Both the position numbers and the translations under genes were made by a program. From Sedimentisphaerales bacterium (GTDB lineage Bacteria > Planctomycetota > Phycisphaerae > Sedimentisphaerales > SM23-30), in NCBI GenBank assembly GCA_963666285.1, contig OY762711.1: a stretch of DNA of 64,000 bases. One strand, given 5' to 3'. This document shows positions 23,813 through 52,742 of the stretch, one piece after another. Within the stretch, counting starts at the first letter, position 1. Each line of letters starts with the position of its first letter. The notes beneath the pieces are model-generated. The model was not told the origin of the DNA. It saw nothing but the letters and a program-made list of their open reading frames with translations, and did no database searches.

Positions 23813-23961
23813 ATAGGCTCCATTTTGTAACTCAATAATAAGTAAATATCTAATTTGTTAATGTACCAAGCCAAAATATGTATTATTACTCTTTTTGACT
23901 TAATTGCAATAAAAATCCTGCACCATGTGAGATGCAGGATTATGCACCCTATGTGGTGCAT

Positions 23962-24042
23962 AGCTCCCCGAACTGGACTTCCGCCAGAGGCGGACGATGC
24001 TCCCCTGTATCCTAGCGGTTAATCAGCCTGAGGCGAACTCGC
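23962..24042 (-). repeat. Degenerate copy of the tRNA-Asn 3' two-thirds (att-like), interrupted by two 15-bp palindromes
   Basis: agctccccgaactggact (23962-23979) equals 63773-63790; cctagcggttaa (24011-24022) equals 63802-63813; ctcgc (24038-24042) equals 63820-63824. Confidence 0.9.
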
Positions 24043-24294
24043 GATACCGAATTTCTTATCCAGCCATTGTTTGCCTTGGCCGGATTTAAGTTGTTTCTCA
24101 CGGTTCATTGCTTCTGATCGGGTATCAAATAATTCTTTGTGAAGAAGTTCCCATTTACCAGGATATTTACTGGTATAGCGATGTTTGTTTTGGCTTAGAC
24201 CATTATGCTCAGCGATTCTTCTTTCCAGATTGTCAGTCTGGCCGATATAACGCTTCCCAGCTTCTTTGTTGATGATTACGTACACCCAAAACAT
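24019..24294 (-). CDS. Small stand-alone GIY-YIG nuclease (UPF0213/SLX1-like)
   Basis: VYVI...YIGQT.NLERR..EHN...YT...EAM.REKQLKSG; SD GGAG. Confidence 0.92.
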   Translation of the reverse strand: MFWVYVIINKEAGKRYIGQTDNLERRIAEHNGLSQNKHRYTSKYPGKWELLHKELFDTRSEAMNREKQLKSGQGKQWLDKKFGIASSPQAD

Positions 24295-24308
24295 TAATAC
24301 ACTCCATT

Positions 24309-24344
24309 AAAAAAGGCACTGCAAGATTTACTCTCACAGTGCCT
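24309..24344 (-). terminator. Intrinsic terminator upstream of the GIY-YIG gene
   Basis: aggcactg...cagtgcct stem with a T-run on the minus strand. Confidence 0.7.
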
Positions 24345-24347
24345 GAG

Positions 24348-25058
24348 CTCGGCAAACCATCCAGCATTTCCAAATGTCTCTATTCTGAGACTCAGAGAGA
24401 TGTCTCTAATGCTGTTAACCAGTCGGTCAGCCAGTTTCGGTCAAGCTACGATTGCCATATTTGAATCTATAAAGGCTATTTCCCCGTGAATGTGCCAAAT
24501 CTTATAGTGCATCAGGGGTTAAAAAAGGAACACATCATAACTCGTCTGAATTAGTTTCTTCTTTAGGAAATTTTTCTTTAAGCCATTTTTCAAAATTTCT
24601 ACTAAGACTTCCTGGGTATTGAACTTCATTTTTCTCGGTAGTAGGTGGCAGTTTATCAAAGATTTTCTTATGCGCCTTTTCAAAGTGATCTCGCCATTCC
24701 CATAGAGACTCAATTAATCCAGTACCAGTATAATCTTTATCATAAGATTCTATGCACTCAAAACATTGTTCATGATGAGTTCTCTGTACAGCAATATCTT
24801 TGTGGCATTCATTACAAATAAACAACCTAAAGTTCAACCATTCATCACCGGCATAATAGGTGAATCCTTCTCGATAGCTAATTTCTTTTTTACAAATGCC
24901 GCAAACTTCTGATTTATCATATTTGGTCACAATAAAACCTCGTTATTTCTTAAATGTTGAACCTAAAAACCTCGGCCACCATCCTGCATTTTCAAATGTC
25001 TCTAATGCCTGTTAACCAGCTGTGCCACAGCTTTGGCTAGACTCCGATTGCCATATTC
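24348..25058. repeat. Imperfect ~90 bp direct repeats (24348-24462 and 24971-25058) flanking one ORF
   Basis: Both read ctcggc..ccatcc.gcattt.caaatgtctcta..tgttaaccag..cgattgccatatt. Confidence 0.85.
24535..24930 (-). CDS. Hypothetical Cys-containing protein
   Basis: CxxC pairs (CGIC, CNEC, CFEC); SD GAGG before GTG. Confidence 0.55.
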   Translation of the reverse strand: MTKYDKSEVCGICKKEISYREGFTYYAGDEWLNFRLFICNECHKDIAVQRTHHEQCFECIESYDKDYTGTGLIESLWEWRDHFEKAHKKIFDKLPPTTEKNEVQYPGSLSRNFEKWLKEKFPKEETNSDEL

Positions 25059-25129
25059 AAACAAGTTTGTCGCAATACCATGTCGCGATATGTCGCGATC
25101 ATCTATATTGCTATGTATTTTTTGTTCCA

Positions 25130-26878
25130 TTAGGGTTCCCCAATAACATTTTCTTTTCCAAATATATGTTCAATTTGCTCAATTGCACTCACAGAAAGCT
25201 TTTGAGTGAAGAGTAGAGCAAGTCTCTTTTTAGCCCGTGAACAAGATACATAAAACAAGTTTCGATTACGTTCAAAGGCATCTTCTTTTCCAGCAGGCAC
25301 ACCATTTTTGAACCATTCGAGTAATTTATTCCAGTCATAGTGATTCCAGCCACGACCGCAAACAACGAGAACTTCGTCAAACTCAGCACCTTTAACGCCA
25401 TGTTTTGTTGAAAATGGTGTTTTGTCTTCTACGTAATGGTAAAGATTGATTACTTCAGAATAAGGCACTGCTTCTAACTTGCGTATTTTTTTTGCAAATT
25501 TTTCATCAGCCTCTTCAATATCCTCTCCAGCAACCTCCGCATTAGATATTTTTACCAATCTTTCTTCTGCGGCAGCAACTTTTGCTGATAAAAGAGGATG
25601 AGACGTGTCATTTAGAAGCTTGAGTACATCGCGTATTGTACCAATTTTCCGAAGCTCTATAAGTTTCTTCAAATCAGATGACCATGCAATCTTGTCTTGT
25701 TGACATGAAAGTCTAGGATGTTTTTTGCCGAGGACAGAAAACATCTCTCCATAGTGCCCAACTAAAAAGTGCTCGTACATAGGTTCTACTGTTTCCAAGA
25801 AAAATTTAATATAATGGTCATTCTTTTTTAGATAATCATCCGTATCTCGAAAACATGCAGTTAAATTACGGTAATTTTGTTCAGATGCCAAAACATTATT
25901 TGTCAGCATTAAAATTTTAGAACTGTCAGTGTTAAGGCTCCATCCACATGCCTTTAAGTTTGTGATTGCCCTTTCAAGGTATTCGTGAGCGTTTGTTTCT
26001 GGCAGGTCTTGTTGCCAGTGGTTTTGTGTCCTTCTCTCACCCTGATATTCATTAGAATGGAATACATAAATACTACCGTTTGAATTTGGGTCCATTTCAT
26101 GTTGTGGAAGGTCTGGTCTCATCCGATTCAAACATTCTACAATATTCTTCTCTGAGCGAAAGTTGGCATTTTTTCCGATAACCTGAATCTTTTCGCTTTC
26201 TATAAGACCGCATGCTTTAGTCCCATAGATTTTTTGCCAGTGATCACCGAAAAGCCCGACCAGCATACCAGAAGAGTTTTCGATAAGGTTAGAAACCAAT
26301 GAGGCAGCAAGGCCAATATTTGTATCCTGATATTCATCAATGAACAATACAGGATATTTAGATTTCAACAATGATTGAAATTTAGGTTTCTCAAGAAGTT
26401 GAGCCATTATTTTGATTACATCATCATGGTGAAGCTCAATAATGTCTTCGTTGGCTTTTGGATATCCAAGGTCATAAATTACTTTCTGCGACTTGAGACC
26501 TCCTGCTTCTTCAATGCGGGCTGCCCATTTGTCGCTTAGGTCTGGCACAAGTAATCTTATTGCAGATTGAAATCCTTTTAATAAACTCCATGAGAAAGCA
26601 TGGATGGTGTCAGTGAAAATTACAGGGTGATTGTCAGTCCGATCACGTATTTCGTCGGCTGCAACATTGGTATAGGTAATACACGCAATTTTTTGCCCGC
26701 TCTTTTCAAACTCAGCAGCCCTGTTGTCGATGTAATACTTTAATGCTTCTACTAACGAATAAGTTTTACCCGCACCTGCACCTGCTTCTACGCGAAAGCA
26801 GGAATTTTCATTTATCGCAGCGAACATTTCATCCGAAGCCCTTTGTGCTGCCTCTAATGCTGGATTAGTGTCGCTCAT
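25130..26878 (-). CDS. gajB: UvrD-like helicase, Gabija GajB
   Basis: EAGAGAGKT, CITYTN, IDEYQD, FGDHWQKIY, NFRS, TKHGVKGAEF, LFYVSCSRA; ATGA-coupled to the OLD nuclease gene. Confidence 0.85.
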   Translation of the reverse strand: MSDTNPALEAAQRASDEMFAAINENSCFRVEAGAGAGKTYSLVEALKYYIDNRAAEFEKSGQKIACITYTNVAADEIRDRTDNHPVIFTDTIHAFSWSLLKGFQSAIRLLVPDLSDKWAARIEEAGGLKSQKVIYDLGYPKANEDIIELHHDDVIKIMAQLLEKPKFQSLLKSKYPVLFIDEYQDTNIGLAASLVSNLIENSSGMLVGLFGDHWQKIYGTKACGLIESEKIQVIGKNANFRSEKNIVECLNRMRPDLPQHEMDPNSNGSIYVFHSNEYQGERRTQNHWQQDLPETNAHEYLERAITNLKACGWSLNTDSSKILMLTNNVLASEQNYRNLTACFRDTDDYLKKNDHYIKFFLETVEPMYEHFLVGHYGEMFSVLGKKHPRLSCQQDKIAWSSDLKKLIELRKIGTIRDVLKLLNDTSHPLLSAKVAAAEERLVKISNAEVAGEDIEEADEKFAKKIRKLEAVPYSEVINLYHYVEDKTPFSTKHGVKGAEFDEVLVVCGRGWNHYDWNKLLEWFKNGVPAGKEDAFERNRNLFYVSCSRAKKRLALLFTQKLSVSAIEQIEHIFGKENVIGEP

Positions 26879-28908
26879 TTGTCCTCTCCCTCAGTTTCTT
26901 CGGCAATAAGCTCTACTTCATCTGCCAGCCAGACAAGGCCTTCTTCAATATACTTGGGAATCTCCCACTCGGTTTCTTCAATCGCGTATTTGATAGCAAA
27001 ATCGGGCTTGCCTGAATCGCCGATTTTCTTAGCTTTATCAAACGCTTCTTTTTCAAGTAAAGTATCGTCAGTTTCTGTAAGGTCAAAGAGTGATTTGTTA
27101 GCTAACATAAATGCGTCTTCAAAACTTCTGCCGCAGGCGGTAGAGCTATCCTCTGGTACTTGGTAAGATAACCGCCGCTTTCCATTCACCTTGTCTTTGT
27201 CGCCTTTTTCTCTGATCGCAGCTAAATCCATATATCCATCTTCTCCAAACCAATTAGAGATTCCCGTATTACTGGAGTGTGTTCCATCACTTACAGGGGC
27301 ACCGCAATAACTGGTTCGTTCGACGTCGTTTTTGTCCTTCTTTGTTTCAGATTTCACAGAATCAAGATCGGTGATAATCAAGGTTTGCAGTTCTAAGAAA
27401 TCAATGAATTTGAAAAAACGCTGGGCATATGCACCGCCTATTTCAACTATTGACATGTAGCTACGTCGCAGATTTTTAGAATGCTTCTCGTCAACTTTTT
27501 TTATAATTTGGGGTGTTAAAATTCTTTCCGTAGCACCTTCGACAAAAACGGCTTTATCTGCGAAATACAGATCGCATTTGGTAAGCGTCATATATTTATG
27601 AACGAAGTCTCGATCTTCTTTCTCAGCCTCCGGGTCAAATATTGTACTTAAGTCCTTTACCTTGGTACCGGCTTCATCTTTCGATAGAAAATAGCGTACT
27701 TTATTAAAATCAACCTCATTAGCCAGGTGAGTCGAGTGCGTACTTACCACGAATTGGACCGGCCATTTGTGGTAAGAGTGGAGGCTTTTTTCAAATTCTG
27801 CAACAATCAGGTCTAACTGCCGTATAAAAACTTCCTGCATTTGCGGATGAAGGTGTGCTTCAGGCTCTTCAATAAAAATAACGTGTCCTTTTGGTGTCTG
27901 TTCTGCTGATTGATATTGCCTGAAAAATTCATAAATTTGGAATAAGATGTAAATAAGATTTCTAAAACCAAGGCCGTTATAAGTTTCTGGCAAAGTAAAG
28001 TGTTCGCTTTTCTGGTAAAAAACTCGGGTATTACTCTCAAGCAATGATTTTACATTCAACTCTGTCTGTGCACTTAGATTAGGGTCATTAAGTCCAGGAT
28101 AGCCGAACAATTCAAGGGACGGGAGCAGTTCTTTTAGTTTTCCCTGAAAATCAGTATCTACTTTAGTTTGCAGTTCATCAACAACATCATTTATCTCAGA
28201 TGATTTAGCTTTGAACTCTTCAGGAGCACTTTCCGATGACGCACTTTTGAAAATATTCCCCAGAGACTTCCCCAGTACATCTTTTTCGTTGTGGGTTTCG
28301 TCATCAAGACCACGCTGAGCGTTAATGAAATCCGACAAAAGAACCCGTTTAACCTTAGCGAAATCAACGGATACAAAGTTATTTACATTGCCTGGCTCAA
28401 CAGCAAAAGCTTTTATTTCAAAATACTTGGCAATCCGTTTTTTTAGGTCTTTGGAATAAGCTGACATGTTTTCCGTTTCCAGCCCCTCAAGTAGTGGCTG
28501 GATTTTCCCATCCTTAACTTGGTAACTGATACGAATAATGGTCTCAACTCTGGTCTCATCAAGATCAAGAATAAAATCTCCGAGGGTGCCGTAGTCGTCT
28601 TGATTGTCTTCATAGTTCAGTAATATCTCTAACTCTATCGATGGAATAAGCTTCCTTATGTCTGCTTCATCATGTCCTCCTTGGGTATAAACAGCTTGTG
28701 CATTTTTAAATTCCATAAGCGATGCAATATTAAAGTCCTCGTAGCTGACCTTGGGAGGCTTATCTGACAGAAAACTCCTGAAAATTTCCGTAAGCGATGT
28801 TTTCCCTGTATTATTCCGCCCAACTATAACAGTACTCTTATCTGAAAAGCTAAGAGATACATCTTTAAGAAGCCTGTAATTTTTAACCTTTAATTCTATG
28901 ATTTTCAT
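26875..28908 (-). CDS. gajA: OLD-family ABC-ATPase/TOPRIM nuclease, Gabija GajA
   Basis: GRNNTGKT, IEEPEAHLHP, STHS, FVEGATE, TDLD. Confidence 0.85.
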   Translation of the reverse strand: MKIIELKVKNYRLLKDVSLSFSDKSTVIVGRNNTGKTSLTEIFRSFLSDKPPKVSYEDFNIASLMEFKNAQAVYTQGGHDEADIRKLIPSIELEILLNYEDNQDDYGTLGDFILDLDETRVETIIRISYQVKDGKIQPLLEGLETENMSAYSKDLKKRIAKYFEIKAFAVEPGNVNNFVSVDFAKVKRVLLSDFINAQRGLDDETHNEKDVLGKSLGNIFKSASSESAPEEFKAKSSEINDVVDELQTKVDTDFQGKLKELLPSLELFGYPGLNDPNLSAQTELNVKSLLESNTRVFYQKSEHFTLPETYNGLGFRNLIYILFQIYEFFRQYQSAEQTPKGHVIFIEEPEAHLHPQMQEVFIRQLDLIVAEFEKSLHSYHKWPVQFVVSTHSTHLANEVDFNKVRYFLSKDEAGTKVKDLSTIFDPEAEKEDRDFVHKYMTLTKCDLYFADKAVFVEGATERILTPQIIKKVDEKHSKNLRRSYMSIVEIGGAYAQRFFKFIDFLELQTLIITDLDSVKSETKKDKNDVERTSYCGAPVSDGTHSSNTGISNWFGEDGYMDLAAIREKGDKDKVNGKRRLSYQVPEDSSTACGRSFEDAFMLANKSLFDLTETDDTLLEKEAFDKAKKIGDSGKPDFAIKYAIEETEWEIPKYIEEGLVWLADEVELIAEETEGEDK

Positions 28909-28990
28909 AATATGTCACTTAGCAAAATTTTGTGTATTTTCAAATATACTTATGATATGAAGCAATTGCCTTTGCTTCATATCATATTTC

Positions 28991-30604
28991 CTACGCCTTA
29001 TTTCCCCTGGTTAACCTTCTGTTAGATAGTTTTTTCCAGATGCTATTTGCTAGTGCAATTTCATTTGAAGTAAAACCATAATGTTTTTGCAGAATAACTT
29101 TGTTTGTCACTTCTAAAACTTCCTCAATGGTTTTCCCTGCCCTAATCATCTGGTCAATATTCTTTAACAAAGATTTATTGTCTGCGTGGTACGGAAGCAT
29201 AATTTCTTCAACTTCATTTGGCATCAATTCTAAAACTCCACCTCCATGGCTTCGACCACATATTTCTGCAAATGCAAGAGATAAGGAATTATAATAACTT
29301 GCAGTCAACGCTTTAATATCTACTTCTGCCCCAGGAGTGACTCTGTGCATAGTGTCAGTTGTATAAGCTTTAGCTTCATTAATAATAAGTTTGGGATATA
29401 TATTGTTTCTTCGAATGAATAATGCATCAGATATCCTTAAGGAAGGGACTATTTGCCATTCATCTCTTATCCTACATTTATATCCTTTATCGATTCCATG
29501 TTTCTGCCCCCAGGCTAAATACTTTAAGGCCCCATTGTTTTTCCTTAATTTATCTTTTGTAGGAAAAGTCAATAAATGTGCTCGGGCCTCATTATCTCTA
29601 TTAAACTCCCAGTCCATTGCAGTAAATATTGCACTTGGAACTTGAACACTTCTTCCAACTAATGGTTTTGCATATTTCTTCAAGTTATACATACTTATTG
29701 TAGAACTAGGTACAGTAAAAAAAGGATTTGCGCCTGTTGTAATTCCAACTTCAACGGTAGCATATTCACCGAATAAAGGAACAGTCTTTTGTTCTTGTAA
29801 CCTTTCAAGGAAATTAATCTCTTTCTGACTCAAAAAATAAAAAGTCCATTTGTTTGACTTAAAATCGATTGTTTTTCGGGGACTTCTTAACTTGGTCATG
29901 TCGATTTTTGTTAAGTCGTCTGCATCCTTAAGCTCTAAGTGCTCAATGCAATGTTTTTTTGATTTATTTTTTTCACATAATAAGAGAACGACTTCTTGTT
30001 GGATATCAGGAAAAACTAATTTCTTGAATGAAATAACATTGATCTTGTTATAAAACTGCGAAAGAAATTGGCGAAGCGTTTTAGCATAAGAGACTTGCAA
30101 TATTTCAGCAGGAAGAACAAAACCAATCTTTCCGCAATCTTTTAATAATAGACTTGAACCTACAACAAATGAAACCCAAGCGTTTGTAAGCTTAGAGTAC
30201 TTTAAATTTGCTCGTTGAAATATCTGTTCAGCTTCATTTCGCTGCTGCTTGTCAAAGTACTGATATCGTATATATGGCGGATTCCCAACAACCAAATCAT
30301 ATTTCTTGTTTGTTTCGTTACAGAATATATGAAAATCTTTACAAATTATTTCAGTCTTAGAGAGACTGATCTTTTTTGCCTTACCAGCTTCTGTTTCGTC
30401 TAGCTCAATTGCATCTACGGATTTATACGGATAGCCTGCTTCTTTAATTTCTTCCAGAAACACTCCATCCCCACAACTTGGCTCTAAGACATCATGGCCT
30501 TTACTTCCATTAAAGCCCCATTTCAAGATAAATGATGCTATTGCAGGAGGAGTGTAAAAACCTCCTCTGAGTTTTTCTTCACTTGCTTGATTAATCAGTT
30601 TCAT
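28991..30604 (-). CDS. N6-adenine DNA methyltransferase, companion of a type IIG enzyme (M.Eco57I-like)
   Basis: RGGFYTP, EPSCGDG, GNPPY, GGGVLELMP; start moved to MKLINQ. Confidence 0.9.
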   Translation of the reverse strand: MKLINQASEEKLRGGFYTPPAIASFILKWGFNGSKGHDVLEPSCGDGVFLEEIKEAGYPYKSVDAIELDETEAGKAKKISLSKTEIICKDFHIFCNETNKKYDLVVGNPPYIRYQYFDKQQRNEAEQIFQRANLKYSKLTNAWVSFVVGSSLLLKDCGKIGFVLPAEILQVSYAKTLRQFLSQFYNKINVISFKKLVFPDIQQEVVLLLCEKNKSKKHCIEHLELKDADDLTKIDMTKLRSPRKTIDFKSNKWTFYFLSQKEINFLERLQEQKTVPLFGEYATVEVGITTGANPFFTVPSSTISMYNLKKYAKPLVGRSVQVPSAIFTAMDWEFNRDNEARAHLLTFPTKDKLRKNNGALKYLAWGQKHGIDKGYKCRIRDEWQIVPSLRISDALFIRRNNIYPKLIINEAKAYTTDTMHRVTPGAEVDIKALTASYYNSLSLAFAEICGRSHGGGVLELMPNEVEEIMLPYHADNKSLLKNIDQMIRAGKTIEEVLEVTNKVILQKHYGFTSNEIALANSIWKKLSNRRLTRGNKA

Positions 30605-33560
30605 ATAACTCACCAATTAGTGGTATTAATAGGTCCTTGCCCTTTAGCCCATATAGTTTTTTTAGGAGGTTACACATTGCATTCTTTTGTAATTCAAAAG
30701 TTTTTTGCAATGGTTCCTGCTTCCTCTTGTTGCCATCATTTTGACCAATCGAGTGGTAGATTTCAATTAATTGTTTTTGAACACGTGATATTTCATCATG
30801 GACTGAAACGTCATTTTTGTCTTTAAAATTAATAGCTCGTATAGGGAGACGCTTAAGCACTTTAGTACCACGAGCAATGTAACCGCCGCGAAATACTTCA
30901 CCATATAAAGCAGAAAACCACTCGACGTATTTTGAGTTAAGTAATGCTTGGATGTAGTAAATAGAGTATTGACAGTCATCGGGCAATGTGATCATACAAT
31001 AACCTGCAGTGCCTCCAGAGGATATAAGAGTGCCGTAATAATCAATGGCATACTTGTCACCTTGGGATAAAACTCCAACAATAATTTTGGCGGGAACATC
31101 ACATTTATCTAAACACTGATGCCTACCATATCGGTACCATTCATTTTCAGCTGTAGGTGGTGGACTAATATTCCGTTCAGTAAGTTTATCCTTATATGCT
31201 CTCAAGTATTCAAATGCCTTGGGATATTGCTTTCTCAACACATCCAGCTTAACAAAATCAATACTATCGTTCTGTTTTATATAAGGGTAGATGACAAATG
31301 AATTTGGGGAAAAGGGGCGATACGTATTTAGATTGTCAGCCCCACTTGATGTTTGGAAGTAAGGTCGTGTTAGTTCTTTCTCTATCGCCCATACTTTCCC
31401 ATCTTTACGAAAGTAGTAATACTTAGAATCGTCACTAATAGGAATATGGACGTAAATACTATTGGCACTGGTTTGTATACCATTGTAAATATTGCTAGGC
31501 CCAAGCAAGTCACCAAGTTCTACGCTCTGATTGCCAATGGCATCGTAAATTGGTTTTAGATCACTTGACACAAGCACCCAGCCGTTATTGTCTAGGTCGT
31601 CATAATTTACATTCTCATAAGCCTTGGTGGTTTTACGAGTCATCCAACTATCAAGGTCATTGTACTCTGCATATTGCAAAAAATCTTGAGTTTGCTTTTG
31701 AGCGATTAGTAAGCATGTATATGTCGTCTTATCCTGAAAAACTTGATTAGCACCAAATGAAAGTATTCGGCTTATATAGTCATTGTCTTTTAAGTATTTT
31801 CGAAGTTCCTTTCCTGCTCCGACTTTTGTAAACTTGCTCGGGACTATATACCCCAAGTGTCCGCCATCCTTTAACAAAGAGCAAGCACGTTCTATAAATA
31901 GAAAGTATTTATCGAACTGCTTATGTGATGTTTGATAATACTGTTTATATAAACCAAACTCTTTTGGGGTTAGGTTTTTCATGTTTTCTGTCGAAAGGTA
32001 AGGTGGGTTGCCAATTATTATGTCATATTTATCTTCGCCAAAATCATGCGGATTGATTTCTTCTCTATTAGAATCTTGGACATGCGTACTATCAAGCAAG
32101 CTGTTTCCGAAATGAATATTTGAAGACAAGTCAGGAAGTACAGGGGTCGGCACGCTTGAATCAGTTTCATCTTCGATTAACTTGAGAAGCAAACCAAATT
32201 TACATGCCTCTACTGCATTAAAATCTTTATCAACTCCAAAAATGCAGCTTTCGATTAACTTTCTTTTAATTTTATATTGAAGCTTATATGTTGATGTGCT
32301 TTTCTGAATCAATTTCCTAGGAGATTCTCTGATATAATAGTCAATCAATATGTCGTTTAATAATTGATATGTCTCTAACAGAAATGCGCCGGAGCCACAT
32401 GCTATATCAGAAAAACGGTAACTTAATATTTCCTCGTCTGTCTTTCCTTCACAGTACTCTTGGACTGTTTGCCGCAATATATCCTTGATTATGAAAGTTG
32501 GGGTTGTTATGACATCTCTGTCAACATGTTCTGGTTTGTTTTCTAGAACAATTACATTGTCTTTAATTACAAGATGCTGCCCAATAAAAATTTCATAAAT
32601 ATTTCCTAATATATCAGAAGCAAATACTGCGAAAGAATAAGTGCTTGCAGGAAAATATAATTGCTCAATAATTGACCAAAACGCAGACTGGTTATTTTCT
32701 AAAACAGCATCTGAATACTTATGATCAAATAGGCCAGAATTGTATTTCTTGTCAGCCTCCTTGAACTTTTTAATTAGGGATTCAAAATCCTTTTCTTTAG
32801 CACATTGCAGTAAAAATTCATACTCTTCAAGATTCCTGTCTTCGCAAACACGAAGAAAAATAATACTATTAAGGTAGCGATGAACGATATCGTTCAGCTC
32901 TATCTCGTCTATATCAGGTCTATGTGAAAATATCTCTTCGCCTAAAATAACACGCCATTGATTAATCTGGTCTAGGAATATCTTGTCAATGCTAAAAAGT
33001 TTCAATTGTTCTTCAATGTCTTTCCAAATTTCATCAAATTGACCACTATAAACACTTTTCTGGCTTAACTGCTTTTTAATCTCATCATATTTTTCAATAT
33101 ATTCAGTGTAGTGGTATAAATTAATACGAGAATGAGAAGCTATGTCGTCAGCACCAACTTGTTTTGAACAGTCATAAATAGCTAGGTGTTCAAAGTTAGA
33201 TAGGACACTAATCTTTAATTTTGCAGTAAACCCATATGCTCGTGTTTGCCTTGCTGGCTCTGGATTTTCATGGATTTTAACATTTGGCTTTTTAGCCTCA
33301 ACAAAAAACTTTCTGGTGTCGAATAACCTAAAAGTATAGTCAGGTTTTTTGGTATTTGACGAAACATTTTCCTTTAAAGGCTCTTCAACCAAAACCTCTC
33401 TTTCATTTGTTATTTTCCCAGATGCATTCTTTATATCCCATCCCAGTAATTCAAAAAAGGGTTCTAAAAAATCAGTTCTAAGCTGAGATTCGTTGTATTT
33501 GCTTGATAGATAATGAGTCCTATTATTTTCGTATTTCTCAATAAGTTTATTTATGCTCAT
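30591..33560 (-). CDS. Type IIG restriction-modification enzyme (Eco57I-like)
   Basis: N-terminal KPDY...VEAKK nuclease, DIACGSGAF, GNPPY, C-terminal TRD; a ~990 aa plus ~540 aa pair as in Eco57I. Confidence 0.88.
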   Translation of the reverse strand: MSINKLIEKYENNRTHYLSSKYNESQLRTDFLEPFFELLGWDIKNASGKITNEREVLVEEPLKENVSSNTKKPDYTFRLFDTRKFFVEAKKPNVKIHENPEPARQTRAYGFTAKLKISVLSNFEHLAIYDCSKQVGADDIASHSRINLYHYTEYIEKYDEIKKQLSQKSVYSGQFDEIWKDIEEQLKLFSIDKIFLDQINQWRVILGEEIFSHRPDIDEIELNDIVHRYLNSIIFLRVCEDRNLEEYEFLLQCAKEKDFESLIKKFKEADKKYNSGLFDHKYSDAVLENNQSAFWSIIEQLYFPASTYSFAVFASDILGNIYEIFIGQHLVIKDNVIVLENKPEHVDRDVITTPTFIIKDILRQTVQEYCEGKTDEEILSYRFSDIACGSGAFLLETYQLLNDILIDYYIRESPRKLIQKSTSTYKLQYKIKRKLIESCIFGVDKDFNAVEACKFGLLLKLIEDETDSSVPTPVLPDLSSNIHFGNSLLDSTHVQDSNREEINPHDFGEDKYDIIIGNPPYLSTENMKNLTPKEFGLYKQYYQTSHKQFDKYFLFIERACSLLKDGGHLGYIVPSKFTKVGAGKELRKYLKDNDYISRILSFGANQVFQDKTTYTCLLIAQKQTQDFLQYAEYNDLDSWMTRKTTKAYENVNYDDLDNNGWVLVSSDLKPIYDAIGNQSVELGDLLGPSNIYNGIQTSANSIYVHIPISDDSKYYYFRKDGKVWAIEKELTRPYFQTSSGADNLNTYRPFSPNSFVIYPYIKQNDSIDFVKLDVLRKQYPKAFEYLRAYKDKLTERNISPPPTAENEWYRYGRHQCLDKCDVPAKIIVGVLSQGDKYAIDYYGTLISSGGTAGYCMITLPDDCQYSIYYIQALLNSKYVEWFSALYGEVFRGGYIARGTKVLKRLPIRAINFKDKNDVSVHDEISRVQKQLIEIYHSIGQNDGNKRKQEPLQKTFELQKNAMCNLLKKLYGLKGKDLLIPLIGELYETD

Positions 33561-33755
33561 AACAGATCTCCATATCTTATTTGTCTTCCTGCAACAAGAA
33601 AAACATTAGTGCCTATGCAATAGTACCCAGCGGTAAATGCTGATAAATCGTAAATCCTTTTAAGTTCTGAAAATAAACCTTTTCGATAATTGGATTGCAT
33701 CGTAAATTATATATCCCATAGCCACATAGACAAAATCATTCTCAGGCATAGGTTT

Positions 33756-33971
33756 TTAAATCTTTTCGTCAGGAAGCTTTCCTTTTTCGCTCAGCCACCG
33801 ATCAATGGTTTCCTTGTGAAACCGCCAATGCCGCCCAACTTTCTGACCTGGTAATTTGTCTTCCTGAGCCAGTTTATAGAGTGTAGACTTAGCGACCTTC
33901 AAGTAAGTTGAAAGTTCGTCAATTGTCATTACACTTGTATTCTCTTCAAACATATTATTCGCCTTGTGCAT
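33756..33971 (-). CDS. Excisionase-like HTH_17 DNA-binding protein
   Basis: MTIDELSTYLKV.KSTLYKLAQ..KLPGQKVGRHWRF. Confidence 0.9.
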   Translation of the reverse strand: MHKANNMFEENTSVMTIDELSTYLKVAKSTLYKLAQEDKLPGQKVGRHWRFHKETIDRWLSEKGKLPDEKI

Positions 33972-34409
33972 AAATTGGCTATTTTAGAGGATAGTACAGC
34001 TTCTAAAGCCTCGGAATGCCATATATTTAACAGTTATTAATGCTTGCTGTCAATTACTAATTACCAGATGTCCGATTTAGAGTACATAAACTTGATTTTT
34101 TAAGCTTAATTTGTTAAAATTTTATTAAAAGGTTCAGAAAAGACGTGAATTCTGAACCTTTTTTCACGTCGATTTTGCAATTTTTTCTAAGAAATCCATA
34201 TTTTCAGCCCCTTATGAGGCCATTTTCCACTTTTTGCCCGTGTCATCCAGAGCAAGAATACATTTACACTGCCTATATCTGGCAAGCCTATTATGCACAT
34301 AAATGCTTATTAGTAAAGCATATAAGTGCAAATCAATCTCCATCAAAGGTTCATATAACACGTCTTAGATGAACTCAAGTGACAGGAGAAGTATTTTGAT
34401 TAAAAAAGC

Positions 34410-35039
34410 ATGATAACCGGCAATTGGATTCTGGAGCCAAGCAAGTTTCTAAACAGGAGTCAGGCTGGCGATTTACTTGGTACCGCCAAAGAGCAAGCTG
34501 AGATTTCACAGGCCAGAAGCGAAAAAGTCGCTGTTCGGGACTACTTTGTAGTCCATTTTAATATTGGAACTGGCCTGAGAGTTGCGGAACTGGCAGATTT
34601 GAACTGCGGCGATCTGTTTATCAATGGCAAATCGAGTTCTGTATTGGTCAGGAATGGCAAAGGCAGCAAGAAGCGATTGGTCTTTATTAGTGAGTTATTG
34701 GCAAGCCACTGTAAGGAGTATCTTCGGTGGAAAAAGCAGATCGGGGAATCGGTCGAAGATGATTCGCCATTATTTCTGTCAAGCAATACCGGCAGGCACA
34801 TGACTTCCAGAGCTTTGCAGAAAGCTTTTAAGCGATGTGCCAAGAGAGCGAATTTGGACTCAAATTATTCGATTCACTGCCTTAGGCACACATACGCCTG
34901 TTTTTTGCTGAAAGCCAGCGACTGGAATCTCAGGCTTGTTCAGAAGCAGCTTGGCCATGCCCGGATATCCACAACACAAGTATATGCTGACGTAATGATG
35001 CCTGACATCGAAAAGGCACTTAACAAACTGCACTTATAA
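34410..35039 (+). CDS. Tyrosine recombinase, catalytic domain only
   Basis: GLRVAE, GKGSK.R, HCLRH, LGH, TQVY; only 209 aa. Confidence 0.9.
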   Translation: MITGNWILEPSKFLNRSQAGDLLGTAKEQAEISQARSEKVAVRDYFVVHFNIGTGLRVAELADLNCGDLFINGKSSSVLVRNGKGSKKRLVFISELLASHCKEYLRWKKQIGESVEDDSPLFLSSNTGRHMTSRALQKAFKRCAKRANLDSNYSIHCLRHTYACFLLKASDWNLRLVQKQLGHARISTTQVYADVMMPDIEKALNKLHL

Positions 35040-35122
35040 AAGATTATTCACCGTACGGTGGTAACAAGGATAAAATTTATAAGGACAATCGTTTTCCAAT
35101 AATAATAAGAGAGGATATTAAA

Positions 35123-35800
35123 ATGAAACTTCCAGATTTTATTAAAAAGCCATTAACTGGGCTTGCTTTACTAGCTGCGGCAACATCCGCAAATGCTGGG
35201 GTGACTACTGATCTACAAGTAGGAAATTATAACAATCTTGACAATGGTTTTAATTACACCTTAGCAATCACCAATACATATCCTGATATTACATTCGATT
35301 CTGGATTAGTTAAAAGTGATTTTATCAATGGTTTAGCTGATAGTATCGCAAACTACAATCCTAACGTAGATAAGCAGAGTGTTGTTGATGAATTGAATTC
35401 TACTATCGGCTTTTTTCCAACTAGTGACTACAACGGAAGTACCGGCTGGTTCAACTCTATTACTCCAGCGGGAGACATTGAGTTGACTAATAATGGAATA
35501 ATTCCAGGAGTTACTTACAATGAATGGAATCAGGACGGCACCGCTGTTCTTCATGGATTCGTGAATGCAGACCTGCTTGATGTTGATGGTGTTACTGGGT
35601 ACAATCCTGTTACTGATCTGGGCTTAAGAATTGATTCACTAAATCCGTACATCAATGGAGTTATTGGAACAAGTACTAACAACCTACGGTACGGTGGGGA
35701 TTTAGATCGACTTGAAGCTACCCCTGTCCCAGAGCCTTCATCGTTAGCACTTGTTGGAATGGGAGCATTAGCATTATCAGGTTACAGAAAAAGAAAATAA
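35123..35800 (+). CDS. PEP-CTERM sorting-signal protein
   Basis: Signal peptide; C-terminal VPEPSSLALVGMGALAL..RKRK. Confidence 0.9.
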   Translation: MKLPDFIKKPLTGLALLAAATSANAGVTTDLQVGNYNNLDNGFNYTLAITNTYPDITFDSGLVKSDFINGLADSIANYNPNVDKQSVVDELNSTIGFFPTSDYNGSTGWFNSITPAGDIELTNNGIIPGVTYNEWNQDGTAVLHGFVNADLLDVDGVTGYNPVTDLGLRIDSLNPYINGVIGTSTNNLRYGGDLDRLEATPVPEPSSLALVGMGALALSGYRKRK

Positions 35801-35821
35801 TATTAATTTTGGAAAGTTTCA

Positions 35822-35854
35822 TAATGAAGATTGGTGTCTTGCCGGTCTTCATTA
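35822..35854. terminator. Hairpin between convergent genes
   Basis: taatgaagattggt-gtctt-gccggtcttcatta. Confidence 0.65.
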
Positions 35855-38800
35855 TTAGTTCAAAACATGAGTTTTTGAAATATTGTTTAGAAAGTCACCC
35901 TCATAGTAAAACAAGTCTCCGTAATCAAATAAACCGCTTTTACTGTCATCATAAATTTTAACTATACCGCCTCTTCCTGATATATTTGCGTAAGATCCAA
36001 AAGAGTTTTGAGAAAATATTTTGTATTGAATCTCATCCATACTATCACTCACCGTAAATCTTCCAAGCACACAGCCGCTATCATCACAGCCGTCCTGCAC
36101 AAAAGAATATTTTCCCATATAATAAGAAGTATTCATAACTACTCCATCAAAACTATTGTCAACATCTACTAACCACCAACTATCGCCATAACTGGCATTA
36201 TAATCATTAGTCAGGTCAGTAGTGAATGAGTAACTGAAATTATTGGCGACAGAATTATTAAACCAGTATTGGTTATATCCATCTTTGCCAACAGAAACTA
36301 AATTGCTTAAATCTACATCTGACAGATTAATTGGTTCATTAAAAGTCAGATTCAACTCGAAGGTACTCAACTCGAAGGGACTATTGACTAAGGAGACTTT
36401 CAGATTACTCACGGTGTCAATGTCATGAAGCAAAGTATAATTTCTGAAATCGGTCATATGACTATTGTTTTTTGAATAGTCCCATTCAGGAATATGGGTT
36501 TCAATAAATGTTATATTTTCAACCGCCGAATCAATACTCATCAACACTGTTTCATTAAAATATTCAAAATCAGTATCAAAGCTGAAATTTAATACAACAG
36601 AAGTGCCATCCCACGTCATAAACCAACCCGAGACATTCTTGCTAAGATCAATATTGCTGCTGCCTAATGAATCTGAATAGCTTCCTGATAATTGGATCGG
36701 ATTTCCAGTGGAATTCAAAAATGAGATCGTTGAATAATTATAAACATACCTGTTTGCGAAATCAATTGCTTTGGTATTCGACCCATAGTCATATATAGTT
36801 CCATCAAAAGAATTGACCGTCATTCCTGACAGATTGCAGCCTTCTAACTTCACTTCTGACTCGCTGCTTCCCGTGAAGACAACACCGTTAATAAAACTTA
36901 CATTTTCAAATCGTAATACCCCTAAATCAGTTCCGGATATATTAATGCTGCTTCCATTAAAAATCGAATTTGAGACAGTACCGTTTGACTCACTAAAATT
37001 AACAGATGCATTGAACACAACCTGATTTATATTGACTCGGACATTATCAAATTCAACATTAGCAACAAAATCTTTTCTAACAGATCCTGAATAATCACAT
37101 CCGCTCGCAATAATAGCGATTCCAAGACTGAACGGCAGATCGTAATCTGCACATCTGGTTTCATCGGTTATTGTGTCAGCCAAAATCATAGAATATTGAT
37201 TCGGTGCAAAATCTATAGCAAAAGAATCGTCTGAATTCTGGTTAAAAGTATAGAGGTTAGATTTATCAACCAGATAGTATTTCAGATTCTGAGACGAATC
37301 ATAATAATCATTTCGATAAGTTCGCCCGACCATATTCACCTTAAAGAAGTAATCGTTATAGTTCCATCCATTGACAGTGTTAATGTCTGAAAATGTGAAA
37401 TTAACTATCGGAGAAGTTTTATTGACATTAATTTTTGCCGTATATTCTGTGCTCAGGTTCCTGAAATCTGAAATATTATTGTCTGCAATTTTCAACAACC
37501 GATTGCCGCTGATATAGGAGTAGATTATTTCCGAGTCAGAATCATTATCGAAATCATAGTTTGCTGAAACGTATGCGGGCGACCAATCAAATGTTTTAGT
37601 TGTCAATGAATTTACAAGGTAGATTCCTAATACCCCCGAACCCTTAAAAGCATGGTATATGAGATCATAATTAGCATCTCCCATAACGTCTAATAATTGT
37701 GTTTCGTAAAGAAAGTTTAGGCCAAAATCAAATGATTCTTCCAACTCCAATCCGCTTCCGCTGTAATTATACCAGTAGACTCCATAATCGGTGCTATCCA
37801 CACCGATTTCAATATGTCCATCCGAATCATAATCTCCTGCGAATATTGATTTGACATCAAACCCGTTTGCATTAATATAATAATAGTCCCATTCAGAAAT
37901 GTTCATGGACAAGTTGTTTCGATGAAATAATTTGATTTGATTCGGAGCTGAAACATCATAATAGCATATTACATCTTGTATCGTATCTTTGTCAATGTCG
38001 ATAATCTTCATATCTGTGCATTTATAGTTTCCTCCAGAGACAATCTTAGTATTAACAGGGACAAATGCGTCTCCATCTAAACTATAATAATTATATTGCC
38101 ATTGCCCTCCGTCTGCACTGGTTGCATTCAAAACCAATACATCCTTGTAAAAATCCCCATCAATATCGAACGCGCTAAACGACAAAATATGATCCATGCC
38201 GTCAACTACCTGAGCACCATAATTAAACCTAAAACCATCACCATCAATCGCCCCAAGTAATAAATGGATATCACTCTTGTTGCCAATCAGAATGTCACCG
38301 ATTCCATCCCAATTGAAATCAGTGATGAAAAACTCTGCGTCATTATTCATAACAACACCTGTAGCTGGAAGTGTAACTGAATTCAAAATCTCTCCGGCAC
38401 CTGAGTAATTCGCCCGAACATTAACTCCATCAAAGACAAGAAGGCCATCATCTTCAAGCACAATTAAATCGTCAATACCATCCAAATCTATATCGTAATT
38501 GCCAAGCTTAAATCCATTAGCAGATGAAATCCCAGAAAATGGGTTAGAGTTTGAAACCGAAAACTGCGGTTCATAAGGCTCAACTGAAACATAACCACTG
38601 CCATTGTACCAGCCGCCAGAATATGAGCAGTTGTAGACAAGGTTTATATTGTCCGAATTACTATATGTATGCGTGTAGCTCTGCACATCCGAATAATCAT
38701 TACTGTCAATTGAAATGTCACAGGAATCAAAATCAATTGTGCTTCTATCAGATTCAACATACCATGAAACAATTTCGTATTCATTTTCGATATATTGCAT

Positions 38801-39178
38801 TGGAGAATAATCAAAGTCTAAGTAAAACTTTCCCTGCTGGTTATAAGGCACAGTCCAGTTTAAGAAGTAGTCAGTGCCGTTTGAACAATTGAAATACAAA
38901 TAAGTACCATTTATGAAAGATATGGTAAAATTGTACAAATTGCCCGAACTTCCATTTGCTTGATAAAAAGTTGCATTGTCGTAACTGAACGAACAGTTAT
39001 TCGAATTTTGCAGAATGTTAGAAGAGTAGAGACCGACTGTTAAATTGACATTGTCATTTTTGTACAAGTCCATCCAAAATGGATTTTCAATATTTGTTAC
39101 ATTGCCTTGAATTGTATTTGCAAAACATAAGCTAGAAATAATTACTGCAAATACCAAGCAAAACGTTATGCCCCTCAT
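35855..39178 (-). CDS. Large secreted FG-GAP/VCBS-repeat surface protein, Asn-rich, archaeal-like
   Basis: Signal peptide; repeated DxDxDGxxD motifs; very dense N-x-S/T sequons. Confidence 0.75.
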   Translation of the reverse strand: MRGITFCLVFAVIISSLCFANTIQGNVTNIENPFWMDLYKNDNVNLTVGLYSSNILQNSNNCSFSYDNATFYQANGSSGNLYNFTISFINGTYLYFNCSNGTDYFLNWTVPYNQQGKFYLDFDYSPMQYIENEYEIVSWYVESDRSTIDFDSCDISIDSNDYSDVQSYTHTYSNSDNINLVYNCSYSGGWYNGSGYVSVEPYEPQFSVSNSNPFSGISSANGFKLGNYDIDLDGIDDLIVLEDDGLLVFDGVNVRANYSGAGEILNSVTLPATGVVMNNDAEFFITDFNWDGIGDILIGNKSDIHLLLGAIDGDGFRFNYGAQVVDGMDHILSFSAFDIDGDFYKDVLVLNATSADGGQWQYNYYSLDGDAFVPVNTKIVSGGNYKCTDMKIIDIDKDTIQDVICYYDVSAPNQIKLFHRNNLSMNISEWDYYYINANGFDVKSIFAGDYDSDGHIEIGVDSTDYGVYWYNYSGSGLELEESFDFGLNFLYETQLLDVMGDANYDLIYHAFKGSGVLGIYLVNSLTTKTFDWSPAYVSANYDFDNDSDSEIIYSYISGNRLLKIADNNISDFRNLSTEYTAKINVNKTSPIVNFTFSDINTVNGWNYNDYFFKVNMVGRTYRNDYYDSSQNLKYYLVDKSNLYTFNQNSDDSFAIDFAPNQYSMILADTITDETRCADYDLPFSLGIAIIASGCDYSGSVRKDFVANVEFDNVRVNINQVVFNASVNFSESNGTVSNSIFNGSSINISGTDLGVLRFENVSFINGVVFTGSSESEVKLEGCNLSGMTVNSFDGTIYDYGSNTKAIDFANRYVYNYSTISFLNSTGNPIQLSGSYSDSLGSSNIDLSKNVSGWFMTWDGTSVVLNFSFDTDFEYFNETVLMSIDSAVENITFIETHIPEWDYSKNNSHMTDFRNYTLLHDIDTVSNLKVSLVNSPFELSTFELNLTFNEPINLSDVDLSNLVSVGKDGYNQYWFNNSVANNFSYSFTTDLTNDYNASYGDSWWLVDVDNSFDGVVMNTSYYMGKYSFVQDGCDDSGCVLGRFTVSDSMDEIQYKIFSQNSFGSYANISGRGGIVKIYDDSKSGLFDYGDLFYYEGDFLNNISKTHVLN

Positions 39179-39200
39179 ATTGTGACTATCTGGTTAAGCT

Positions 39201-39215
39201 TATATAAAGATTTTG
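39201..39215 (-). promoter_or_regulatory. Archaeal-type BRE/TATA promoter
   Basis: caaaatc-TTTATATA ending 23 nt before ATG 39178; no SD. Confidence 0.55.
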
Positions 39216-39386
39216 TTTGAGTATTGGTCTACGTTATTATCGGTATAGCAAAAACTTAATAAAGCAGTTAATTGTTCCAAAAATTGGTTAAAGTCGTCAT
39301 TAAGCTTCCTTTCGGGGAAACTTAATGGCATTTTCTTTCTGGTGAATAGCCCCAGTTAACTGCGACAAGCCTCCATAAATATCAGA

Positions 39387-39599
39387 TTATTCATCTATGA
39401 CTACCATTGAGCCATCATTAAATAAATCACCCTGATAAGCAATTTCCATACCAGGAATTGCTTTGGGAGATTTGCTGATAAGGGTATCGTTATCGACTGA
39501 GTAAGCAGTTTCATTTATCGCTATTTCAGAATCATCATTTGCCATGATGGTGCATCCTGAAAGAAGTAATAGTATTGTCAATACAAATATTAATTTCAT
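39387..39599 (-). CDS. Small lipoprotein-like protein
   Basis: MKLIFVLTILLLLSGC; TTTTAAAT box 22 nt upstream. Confidence 0.55.
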   Translation of the reverse strand: MKLIFVLTILLLLSGCTIMANDDSEIAINETAYSVDNDTLISKSPKAIPGMEIAYQGDLFNDGSMVVIDE

Positions 39600-39639
39600 G
39601 TCAATAACCAAAGTCGCCATATTTAAAAGCATTTTGTTC

Positions 39640-39792
39640 TTAATTTTTCTGTTGGTTATTATTTGTCGGCAAACCGTAAGTGAATACATCTAAACATGCT
39701 TGAATCCTTTCCATTCCTTCTTTTTCTGATATTTCTTTTCTATCGTAAGCATCAAGAATCCGTCTTATCTTTTTGATCATTTTAGTGTCCAT
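39640..39792 (-). CDS. Small hypothetical protein (50 aa, below the ORF-track cutoff)
   Basis: MDTKMIKKIRRILDAYDRKEISEKEGMERIQACLD...; AAGGAG upstream; divergent from the wHTH gene. Confidence 0.5.
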   Translation of the reverse strand: MDTKMIKKIRRILDAYDRKEISEKEGMERIQACLDVFTYGLPTNNNQQKN

Positions 39793-39872
39793 TTACACAT
39801 TTTCTCCTTTTTGGCAATCTATTTAGGTATTAAGCTAGCTTATAAAGATGAAGTGTCATTTATTCACGACCT

Positions 39873-39923
39873 CTGCATAATTATGCAGTGATAGTATAAA
39901 AAGGTATCTGTTTAATTATGCAG
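39873..39923. promoter_or_regulatory. Two operator-like palindromes flanking a TATA-like box
   Basis: Perfect CTGCATAATTATGCAG (39873-39888) and variant CTGTTTAATTATGCAG (39908-39923) around TATAAAAA (39895-39902). Confidence 0.7.
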
Positions 39924-39925
39924 AT

Positions 39926-40141
39926 ATGCCAAGGAAAACTTTATCTCAGATATCAGCATCGATTCAGTCATTATTGCAAAGCGAAGGCGAATTATCCGTC
40001 AGGCAGATAGCCCGGCTTACACATACACAGTGGCGAACAGCTGATAAAGCACTGGAACTTTTAAAGTCACTTGGCCTTATTGAGGAACGAAGATCAGATA
40101 ATAACAAAAGAAATGAACGCCTGTTCCGCTTGATTAAATAA
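39926..40141 (+). CDS. Small winged-HTH DNA-binding protein
   Basis: GELSVRQIA......WRTA.KALELLKSLGLIEE...RLFRL. Confidence 0.8.
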   Translation: MPRKTLSQISASIQSLLQSEGELSVRQIARLTHTQWRTADKALELLKSLGLIEERRSDNNKRNERLFRLIK

Positions 40142-40167
40142 AATCAACATATCATGCTTAATCAGCA

Positions 40168-40518
40168 TTAAACCCGATATAGCTGATCATAGAGGCGAAC
40201 AGGCAGATAATCCCTAACTGCAGTATCAAGGCCTTCAACCATATGCAAAGCCTGGGGTAGCTGCCCCTGAACAAGAGCATCATAAACATCCTCCAAGTCC
40301 GCAACATCACTAAATGTCGTGCCTGCGATGTCATATTGCTTACGTTTGATATATCCTTTACCATCATCGATCAGTCCGTCGATCTGTGTATGAAGCGATG
40401 CGACATCTTCAATATACTGACCAAGCAAATATCCCTGCGGCAGTCTTGATTGCAAGATTGACTGTTGTTTTTCAGTTAGCTCTTCAAGTGAAAGACATTT
40501 ATTACGCTTACTGGCCAC
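40168..40518 (-). CDS. Hypothetical protein, homologous to the C-terminal half of 47382..47882
   Basis: Shared DV..L.DV..A...G....A....EGL.....D..P.RL pattern. Confidence 0.65.
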   Translation of the reverse strand: MASKRNKCLSLEELTEKQQSILQSRLPQGYLLGQYIEDVASLHTQIDGLIDDGKGYIKRKQYDIAGTTFSDVADLEDVYDALVQGQLPQALHMVEGLDTAVRDYLPVRLYDQLYRV

Positions 40519-40939
40519 TGTCTACACCTCGAAAATAATTACCTGCAAGCTGCTCAATTGGCCGCATATACATATCAATACCCGCTGCGTCGGGCCTGTA
40601 ACCTTCCAGTTGATGATATATATCCGCAGCAGCAATCAATTGCTCAACGTAATTATTCGCAGGAACTGCACTTTGAACCTCAACTTCCGGTGTTAAAAGC
40701 TGGATGTCTATAAATTCAGATCGCATTCTCCTGCTGAAAATAGCGTAATAGCCATCTCTCCCCTCTATATCAATCTGCGTATATCTTGGGTGCTGCAATG
40801 TCCCGCGATCCCGCCCAGCCATATATGAAGCAACCACTATATCATTCACCAAATCATTTTTATCATCACCGGCATTGAACCTGTTATGGTATTGTCGAAC
40901 AATCCCTTCGATAGTTTCCCGTTGTATTGGATCAGTCAT
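40508..40939 (-). CDS. Hypothetical protein
   Basis: ORF overlapping the downstream gene; GAGGTG SD for the next gene lies inside it. Confidence 0.6.
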   Translation of the reverse strand: MTDPIQRETIEGIVRQYHNRFNAGDDKNDLVNDIVVASYMAGRDRGTLQHPRYTQIDIEGRDGYYAIFSRRMRSEFIDIQLLTPEVEVQSAVPANNYVEQLIAAADIYHQLEGYRPDAAGIDMYMRPIEQLAGNYFRGVDSGQ

Positions 40940-40970
40940 CGTATATCATAAAGCAAACCCAATAATTCAT

Positions 40971-42104: not shown

Positions 42105-42322
42105 AGTGCCACCTCTGGACAGTAGTGTTTTTGTGGTTTGTCTCGATTAGGACGGTTTAGAATGCCGTAAATGAGTGTTTCAGAAAAAAGGGGCTGGGGA
42201 GACAAAATGTAAATGCCCAGGCCGGGCTGACTCAATTTGACTCCACAGCCACTTTTACGGTGCAAATGGATTGTTTTTATCATGCTTTTTCTTAACAATT
42301 ACCCATATATAAATTATTCGTT

Positions 42323-42499: not shown

Positions 42500-42576
42500 T
42501 TTTGCATCAATGCTCGAGAGTAATAGATTTTTTATAAATGATCTATCGATTTTGGCGGTAAGATTTCAATGGGCAT

Positions 42577-52715: not shown

Positions 52716-52742
52716 TCATATCCACAGAAAGGTGTCCAATTA

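Follow-up and report, generated by a model that had tools for sequence, protein, structure and literature searches.

Islands that integrate at tRNA genes leave a displaced tRNA 3′ end, the attR fragment, downstream of the intact tRNA. Slx1 enzymes cleave branched DNA, and the GIY-YIG domain, to our knowledge, hydrolyses DNA and cannot religate it, so mobility based on such a domain needs host enzymes. The single-domain GIY-YIG nuclease Ssn (cd10448, about 90 amino acids) cuts single-stranded DNA beside its own hairpin repeat, NTS/SRM; its gene is flanked by this short repeat, which is also dispersed genome-wide and comes in homolog-specific variants, and its authors proposed an IS-like architecture, describing bacterial SLX1-like proteins as a sparsely characterised sister clade (Chenal et al. 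2025, PMC11893778). SegB, a free-standing, modular GIY-YIG homing endonuclease borne by T-even phages, is encoded beside tRNA genes and cuts double-stranded DNA; its cleavage drives tandem tRNA-segB amplification through recombination between the 3′ end of the gene and the tRNA, multiplying a functional tRNA (available text of PMC13096335). In REPtrons, the gene of a small nuclease, a RAYT HUH transposase, goes with REP sequences, which are short, GC-rich and palindromic and lie scattered between genes (available text of PMC3733652).

The window, a 64,000-nucleotide stretch of contig OY762711.1 from a Sedimentisphaerales bacterium, holds one displaced copy of a cassette made up of a leader hairpin, an Slx1-like GIY-YIG gene and a palindrome-broken tRNA copy (Table 1). 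Gene and tRNA-Asn relic together form a unit of about 390 bp and are no ordinary att scar; the cassette resembles Ssn/NTS and SegB, yet falls outside both as they are defined. Judging from sequence comparisons, we think it moderately probable that such cassettes, which are widespread, about 320–390 bp long and lodged on tRNA genes, are selfish elements with a putative ability to nick single-stranded DNA at their own clade-specific palindrome.

Table 1. Features of the displaced cassette, its tRNA-Asn relic and the intervening island in the window.
Feature	Position	Strand	Remarks
GIY-YIG nuclease gene, UPF0213/Slx1-like	24019..24294	-	single-domain, 91 aa; 3′ end overlaps tRNA relic
GGAG, likely ribosome-binding site	24302..24305	-	7 nt before ATG; also in G001–G003 cassettes
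Cassette leader, terminator-like hairpin	24308..24344	-	13 pairs and T run; 91% identity over 44 nt to the hairpin after tRNA-Asn and each relic in G003
5-bp core, island far end	24346..24350	.	same as 63773–63777 (tRNA 3′ end); empty-site contig switches to tRNA here
Relic D-loop/D-stem remnant, degenerate	24038..24048	-	tRNA positions 18–28, 9/11; translated as protein
Decayed cassette palindrome, type A	24023..24037	-	10/12 arm bases; replaces tRNA positions 29–34
Relic tRNA positions 35–53	24004..24022	-	2 mismatches; contains stop codon; rest of anticodon loop, 3′ anticodon stem, variable loop, 5′ T-stem
6 extra bases before T-loop remnant	23998..24003	-	with 24004–24005 form second GCTCCCC
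Perfect type-A palindrome in T-loop (57/58)	23980..23994	.	missing from empty-site organism's relic
Relic 3′ end	23963..23979	-	17 nt, identical to host tRNA-Asn
Two hairpins after relic	23914..23962	-	second terminator-like; first also leads another tRNA-Asn GIY-YIG cassette in G212
Intact tRNA-Asn(GTT)	63774..63847	-	cassette's target, original neighbour
Island at tRNA 3′ end, between tRNA and cassette	24351..63777	.	39,427 bp; 5-bp core at both ends; outside cassette
Large serine recombinase	60033..61574	+	2.2 kb from tRNA

A preliminary description of this DNA had the open reading frame end inside a tRNA-Asn copy and draw its TAA stop from the anticodon-loop TTAA, and every coordinate it gave for this proved correct: the stop codon occupies 24019–24021, and the last 30 bases of the frame run, on the minus strand, from a D-arm remnant through a decayed palindrome into the TTAA. 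The decayed 15-mer agrees with the perfect palindrome at 12 of 15 positions and encodes the C-terminal codons S-S-P-Q-A-D. Alignment of the relic with the intact tRNA bore out the placements proposed earlier: this 15-mer stands in the 5′ anticodon stem in place of positions 29–34, the other is inserted in the T-loop, and a second GCTCCCC lies at 23999–24005. The copy had been taken for the 3′ two-thirds of the tRNA; its limit lies further 5′, as a D-arm remnant within the frame extends it. The intact tRNA-Asn is the sole tRNA of the window and the sole tRNA-Asn among the 55 tRNAs of the genome. An Rfam scan of 23500–24600 returned nothing at family threshold. Similarly to the six added bases, an extra GGAG precedes the T-loop palindrome of locus L032. 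We also observed that, in genome G212 (L119, about 1480–1700), the hairpin found here at 23941–23962 recurs after an end fragment of tRNA-Asn. There it stands ahead of another GIY-YIG gene, one like those of L018 and L024, which looks island-displaced too.

The encoded protein belongs to the GIY-YIG superfamily: it matches PF01541 (E 1.6e-17; 64 bits against a cut-off of 22.6), and its Y16, G18, R26, H30 and E66, among them the catalytic Tyr, Arg, His and Glu of the domain, are invariant across 31 aligned sequences. The predicted structure (pLDDT 89) has three strands and three main helices. UPF0213 proteins (PDB 1ywl, 1zg2) and Slx1/HIGLE (Slx1: 4xlg, 6seh) are the best matches in sequence and fold and share the catalytic residues, but at only 29–34% identity; Foldseek ranked UPF0213/Slx1 first, with nothing at E ≤ 0.001, and the part of the literature covered mentions no link of these proteins to tRNA genes or palindromes.

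Mutation of Y6, Y17 or E64 abolishes cutting by SsnA (main text of PMC11893778), and catalytic residues of the window protein likely correspond to these by motif position. At 91 amino acids, the protein also has the size of Ssn (single domain, about 100 residues). In a quick tree of 133 proteins over 90 columns, so few that many forks stay open, six proteins that we take to be Ssn-like from their C-terminal motif group separately (SH-aLRT 99), which sets the window protein outside the cd10448 clade. The SRM motif occurs at 0 of 115 cassette loci and is absent from the window, by a search whose positive control was weak (1 of 6), and the species of a 71%-identical protein (P0003) is listed without an ssnA homolog (PMC11893778, Supplementary Data 4). 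Unlike Ssn, described in a main text with no mention of tRNA, the cassette keeps to tRNA genes, has a tRNA relic fused to its gene and occurs in tandem arrays.

The position at tRNA genes is shared with SegB (64 of 80 loci, these being the best 80 of 566 homologs). In contrast to SegB, the cassette is chromosomal, its 91-residue protein carries no extra domain, and its repeats are palindrome-inactivated relics. The modular Seg-type architecture is missing, and homing-endonuclease profiles match part of the catalytic domain only: TIGR01453 scores 27 bits against a cut-off of 56 and covers residues 4–39, and PHROG matches reach 39 positions of one profile (284 long) and 69 of another (574 long). 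Close homologs were absent from 50,697 phage records and from a plasmid collection, which gave one weak match; among 80 viral-contig loci there was one close full-length homolog, at a contig end beside a tRNA relic. With REPtrons, the cassette has in common a dispersed, mostly intergenic palindrome family. It differs in carrying a GIY-YIG and not a HUH nuclease, in lacking an HUH Y1 transposase flanked by the repeats and in having no GTAG or CGTC tag, and the available text of the REPtron survey mentions neither GIY nor the first six bases of the palindrome (PMC3733652). The ESM Atlas returned generic GIY-YIG clusters only, and we found no published description of tRNA-lodged GIY-YIG cassettes with palindromes in a literature search whose coverage takes in a minority of subscription journals.

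We asked how far this arrangement recurs in relatives, using the best 80 of 566 confirmed homologs in GTDB. Named organisms among the neighbours of the window protein in searches and tree are Planctomycetota. An intact tRNA on the same strand lay within 500 bp at 64 of these 80 loci (49 Asn-GTT, 7 Lys, 6 Met, 1 His and 1 Thr), against 46 of 4,061 ORFs of at least 150 aa in this genome. Of the 160 flanking windows of 200 nt, 103 contained a palindrome of the TCC...GGA type; among 132 control windows 900–1,100 nt away, 6 did. At 19 of 25 additional class-level loci the tRNA linkage was again present; it held at only 9 of 29 loci in a relatives search that reaches weaker matches. A count of tRNA fragments (69 of 80; either fragment or tRNA, 79 of 80) was set aside, as it had no control and its library included a relic called tRNA-Cys. 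The preliminary description had expected homologs ending in P-x-A-D with flanks alignable to tRNAs; the linkage to tRNAs and palindromes is strong, and the tail itself is confined to 5 of 116 homologs.

Cassettes stand directly 3′ of an intact tRNA or, in other lineages, 5′ of it, and form arrays with unit-length periods. The first layout, that of the window, runs tRNA, gene, 3′ relic; the second runs 5′ relic, gene, tRNA, and its stop codon is often the TAG of tRNA positions 8–10. In all three other genomes of the genus a cassette lies directly behind tRNA-Asn, and two of the three have tandem arrays with periods of 367 and 379 bp whose last units are truncated. Across relatives, periods of 367, 379, 368 and 322 bp occur in tandem and mixed arrays, some of whose units are truncated or gene-less.

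Upstream of tRNA-Asn in locus L002 (G037) and at G403:C11:7775-7949, we observed gene-less tandem 5′ relics, each bearing a palindrome, ahead of the tRNA; both layouts can thus meet at one tRNA. In L136 and L260 (G069), ARAGORN labels a palindrome-bearing relic tRNA-Cys(GCA) because the palindrome loop mimics an anticodon. A third palindrome, CCTGCC...GGCAGG, accompanies tRNA-Leu(CAA) cassettes (L150, L153 and L017), and in L017 the GIY-YIG segment behind it is in frame within a 1,093-aa ORF. Loci L007, L013, L015 and L023 hold a separate small GIY-YIG group with its own branch in the tree, in genes that by eye we take to be 23S rRNA genes.

Palindromes could be mapped on the cognate tRNA in 96 cases, and all 96 break the spare tRNA copy. 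The junction of the window, 28|35, accounts for 21 (12 of type A, 9 of type B), 16 replace D-loop bases 14–17, and the others occupy a few other stem and loop sites. Where the layout is that of the window, the 12-nt tail of the relic equals the host's cognate tRNA tail at 17 of 28 loci and a foreign tail at none of the 28, on comparison with 44 distinct tails; relics that do not match have further palindromes, mutations or cuts. The window relic likewise carries the tail of its own genus, and its nearest protein relatives (71% identity in G037, 70% in G019) carry others. We infer that these tails would fit entry through a crossover inside the tRNA gene. Elsewhere in the genome, plain att-like fragments of tRNA-Met, Lys, Arg, Leu, Ser, Ala, Val and SeC are uninterrupted over their aligned parts. 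The genome also has a cluster of nine tRNAs at G000:C1:5226832-5229866.

The palindromes are not confined to tRNA relics. A genome-wide count suggested in the preliminary description showed that contig C1 has the 6-3-6 palindrome in 23 exact copies, where 0.28 are expected, and 0–1 copies for each other spacer length from 0 to 15; 22 of the 23 lie outside ORFs of at least 150 aa. The enrichment it anticipated at tRNAs and GIY-YIG genes of this genome did not materialise: none of the other 22 copies is at a tRNA, the nearest being 6.6 kb away, and the genome has one small GIY-YIG gene only. Neither outcome that it had named as fatal to its reading was found, as the homologs are tied to tRNA genes and palindromes and the 15-mer recurs across the genome.

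Palindrome type goes with nuclease clade, also inside a single array, and the dominant palindrome of a genome can be predicted from it. The window protein falls in a 14-row group whose palindromes are of type A (TCCGCC, 2–4 bases, GGCGGA; SH-aLRT 94), and a separate 17-row group with type B (TCCCG...CGGGA; SH-aLRT 97) uses the same tRNA and often the same junction; each group extends across host families. Behind a single tRNA in L032 come first a B protein with a B palindrome and then an A protein with its A counterpart. Because physical linkage could explain the pairing at the cassette itself, we counted both types genome-wide in 48 genomes: 8 A-type, 17 B-type, 3 with the third palindrome, excluded from the test, and 20 listed as having no match. 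In all 17 B-type genomes B was the commoner palindrome, and A was the commoner in 6 of 8 A-type genomes, with median A/B counts of 41/14.5 in A-type, 10/67 in B-type and 4/9 in no-match genomes; these genomes are kin and not independent, so that P values for the comparison are too strong. In the two host families that have both cassette types (f1 and f9), counts shift the same way. The fit has exceptions: G516 has no palindrome excess over control, 6 of the 20 no-match genomes have 18–61 type-A copies, and outside Planctomycetota some proteins from beyond the B clade have B-like palindromes close by. The present genome holds 25 type-A and 29 type-B copies, and the latter may be remnants of a B-type cassette like those of the genus.

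For 13 of the 25 A copies and 11 of the 29 B copies here, a TT comes after the palindrome on one strand or both (17.5% in random sequence), as it does at the tRNA junction. An outer hairpin encloses only five of the A and three of the B copies (3.4% in random sequence), which counts against the reading given next. An empty-site search with the 25 dispersed type-A copies produced one clear family, with 17 matches holding another palindrome; the remainder gave none or chance-like matches.

Under the reading we favour, the nuclease would bind the palindrome of its clade as a hairpin in transiently single-stranded DNA and nick beside it; the nick would prime host repair and recombination through the roughly 40 bp common to unit and tRNA gene. 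A single crossover would then insert the copied unit, yielding one whole tRNA and one marked relic. Repeated rounds would build arrays, and the palindrome alone might occasionally be seeded elsewhere as a non-autonomous REP-like repeat, the second copy in the T-loop of the relic included. A physically linked palindrome and gene need no recognition to stay paired at the cassette, and this counts against the reading. The fuller proposal, an autonomous element that dispenses with transposase and integrase and consists of an 80–90-aa Slx1-like nuclease, a tRNA landing pad and a clade-specific palindrome of 14–19 bp that it recognises and scatters, is one we advance tentatively, as possible but short of an even chance.

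A homing-type nuclease that cuts the intact, palindrome-free tRNA gene would make the palindrome a repair footprint or an immunity mark that protects the relic. SegB, which cuts within tRNA genes (available text of PMC13096335), is a precedent, palindromes always interrupt the spare tRNA copy, and the protein groups cluster in part by tRNA isotype (Asn, Lys, Met, Pro, Leu). Such an enzyme would, however, sit beside its intact target at the 64 linked loci of the best 80 homologs, so that the cell would have to tolerate its own nuclease cutting an essential gene that is often single-copy; it is also hard to square with two protein clades that share tRNA and junction and differ in palindrome, and it leaves the genome-wide match of palindrome type unexplained. 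We regard it as unlikely.

Slightly less likely still is a reading in which another factor moves the palindromes, as a general REP-like class, and a domesticated nuclease cassette, serving for example as a single-stranded DNA guard or as a decoy attachment site at a tRNA hot spot, collects whichever palindrome is locally common. In its favour, one dispersed intergenic repeat of this genome holds an A, a B or a third palindrome in the same slot (for example at G000:C1 36727, 1934259, 5051543 and 851300); palindromes occur in genomes with no detected cassette; and an island of the same recombinase family as the one in the window lies immediately after the relic in G069. A host role also has a parallel in Ssn, which limits transformation in Neisseria (main text of PMC11893778). 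Against this, the two proteins of the mixed L032 array each have a palindrome of their own type within one and the same genome, and truncated or gene-less array units suit a parasite better than a maintained host function. No candidate for the other factor was found near the palindromes of this genome: its five Y1_Tnp matches and any four-helix-bundle gene lie more than 5 kb from every exact type-A copy, and no DUF559 or PDDEXK_3 gene was found.

The order of events at the locus, returning to the selfish cassette that we favour, can be read from another organism, which has no island at this place. In run X4, from organism B of another study, a 385-base contig matches 24007–24350 with 20 differences; one of its loose ends, towards 24350, is the 3′ end of tRNA-Asn, and the opposite one is an intact T-arm. 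In a second contig, 23911–23979 continues into an intact T-loop. Both are graph contigs bounded by the repeat, so the empty site is viewed from the cassette side only; this state appears to read tRNA, cassette and relic with one palindrome. With the cassette adjoining the tRNA end and the T-arm intact, it follows that the relic acquired its T-loop 15-mer and six extra bases, and the locus its island, only later. Among the differences from X4, 13 of the 20 account for six silent and five changed codons (two of these in the first 70 residues); dS was saturated in a dN/dS comparison with four relatives. The X4 contigs and the 5-bp core at both island ends support an order of cassette first, then second palindrome and defence island, and uphold the earlier suggestion that the roughly 39 kb inserted later and that ordinary att duplication does not suffice.

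The displaced-tRNA-end pattern of integrating islands applies to this 39-kb island; the cassette differs from it in having no integrase, a length of about 0.35 kb and a palindrome-broken tRNA copy. The serine recombinase is likely the island's integrase: of 20 homolog loci, three have tRNA-Asn within 1.5 kb and a fourth has a relic, and G034, whose recombinase is the closest (49%), has 114 bases in common, at 84% identity, immediately behind its tRNA-Asn. The island would have entered at the last bases of the tRNA, leaving the cassette leader hairpin just inside its junction and moving the cassette 39 kb from the tRNA promoter, and the junction palindrome of the displaced cassette would since have decayed. 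Since no promoter-like site was seen upstream of the gene in 23800–24700, the displaced nuclease gene, still intact, is likely poorly or weakly expressed. A canonical attR was sought among tRNA fragments in 24350–63770, which gave scattered 12-of-14 matches, leaving the 5-bp core only; DNA at the far end of the island had no informative match in 60 relatives. That the relic is the island's ordinary attR scar, twice struck by a host repeat, with the GIY-YIG gene as cargo ending there by chance, is very improbable: the relic does share the orientation of the tRNA and mark the far end of an island that carries an integrase, and plain tRNA fragments of this kind exist elsewhere in the genome, but the gene-relic unit abuts the tRNA in island-free form in many relatives and in X4 (about 94% identity), a contig that refutes the idea unless it is a graph artefact, the island's own junction is the 5-bp core upstream of the gene, and D-arm bases of the relic are still present 5′ of the palindrome.

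Among the island genes are DUF2924, two tyrosine recombinases, Gabija (GajB 25130–26878, GajA 26875–28908) and a type IIG restriction-modification pair; from 25130 to 33560, a type II methyltransferase and the type IIG restriction-methylation gene follow Gabija as the island's defence cargo. Its interior at 44076–58703 further encodes a DNA methylase, two HerA/VirB4-like ATPases, a NACHT-HEAT protein and a cluster of PP2C-FHA, kinase-FHA and vWA genes. An 11-bp motif centred on GTTAAC, which resembles the tRNA-Asn anticodon loop, occurs seven times in the contig, at 63522–63532, 25009–25019 and 24412–24422 among others; the two far-end copies belong to a diverged direct repeat of about 90 bp that flanks an orphan 131-aa ORF (24535–24930). 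These motifs are possibly recombinase sites.

The palindromes account for odd C-terminal tails such as P-x-A-D, and relics of this kind get misread as att scars or as tRNA-Cys. What this locus contributes is an order of events, the cassette preceding the second palindrome and the defence island. If the reading is true, essential tRNA genes in many phyla carry an integrase-free parasite of about 350 bp, bacterial Slx1-like proteins would gain a function, and nature would supply a set of orthogonal hairpin-specific nickases. GIY-YIG nucleases would then be what moves a second type of REP-like repeat in Planctomycetota, Patescibacteria, Bacteroidota and further phyla. The agreement of nuclease clade with the genome's dominant palindrome points to substrates for reciprocal assays and gives short palindromic repeats without a known transposase an origin that can be tested.
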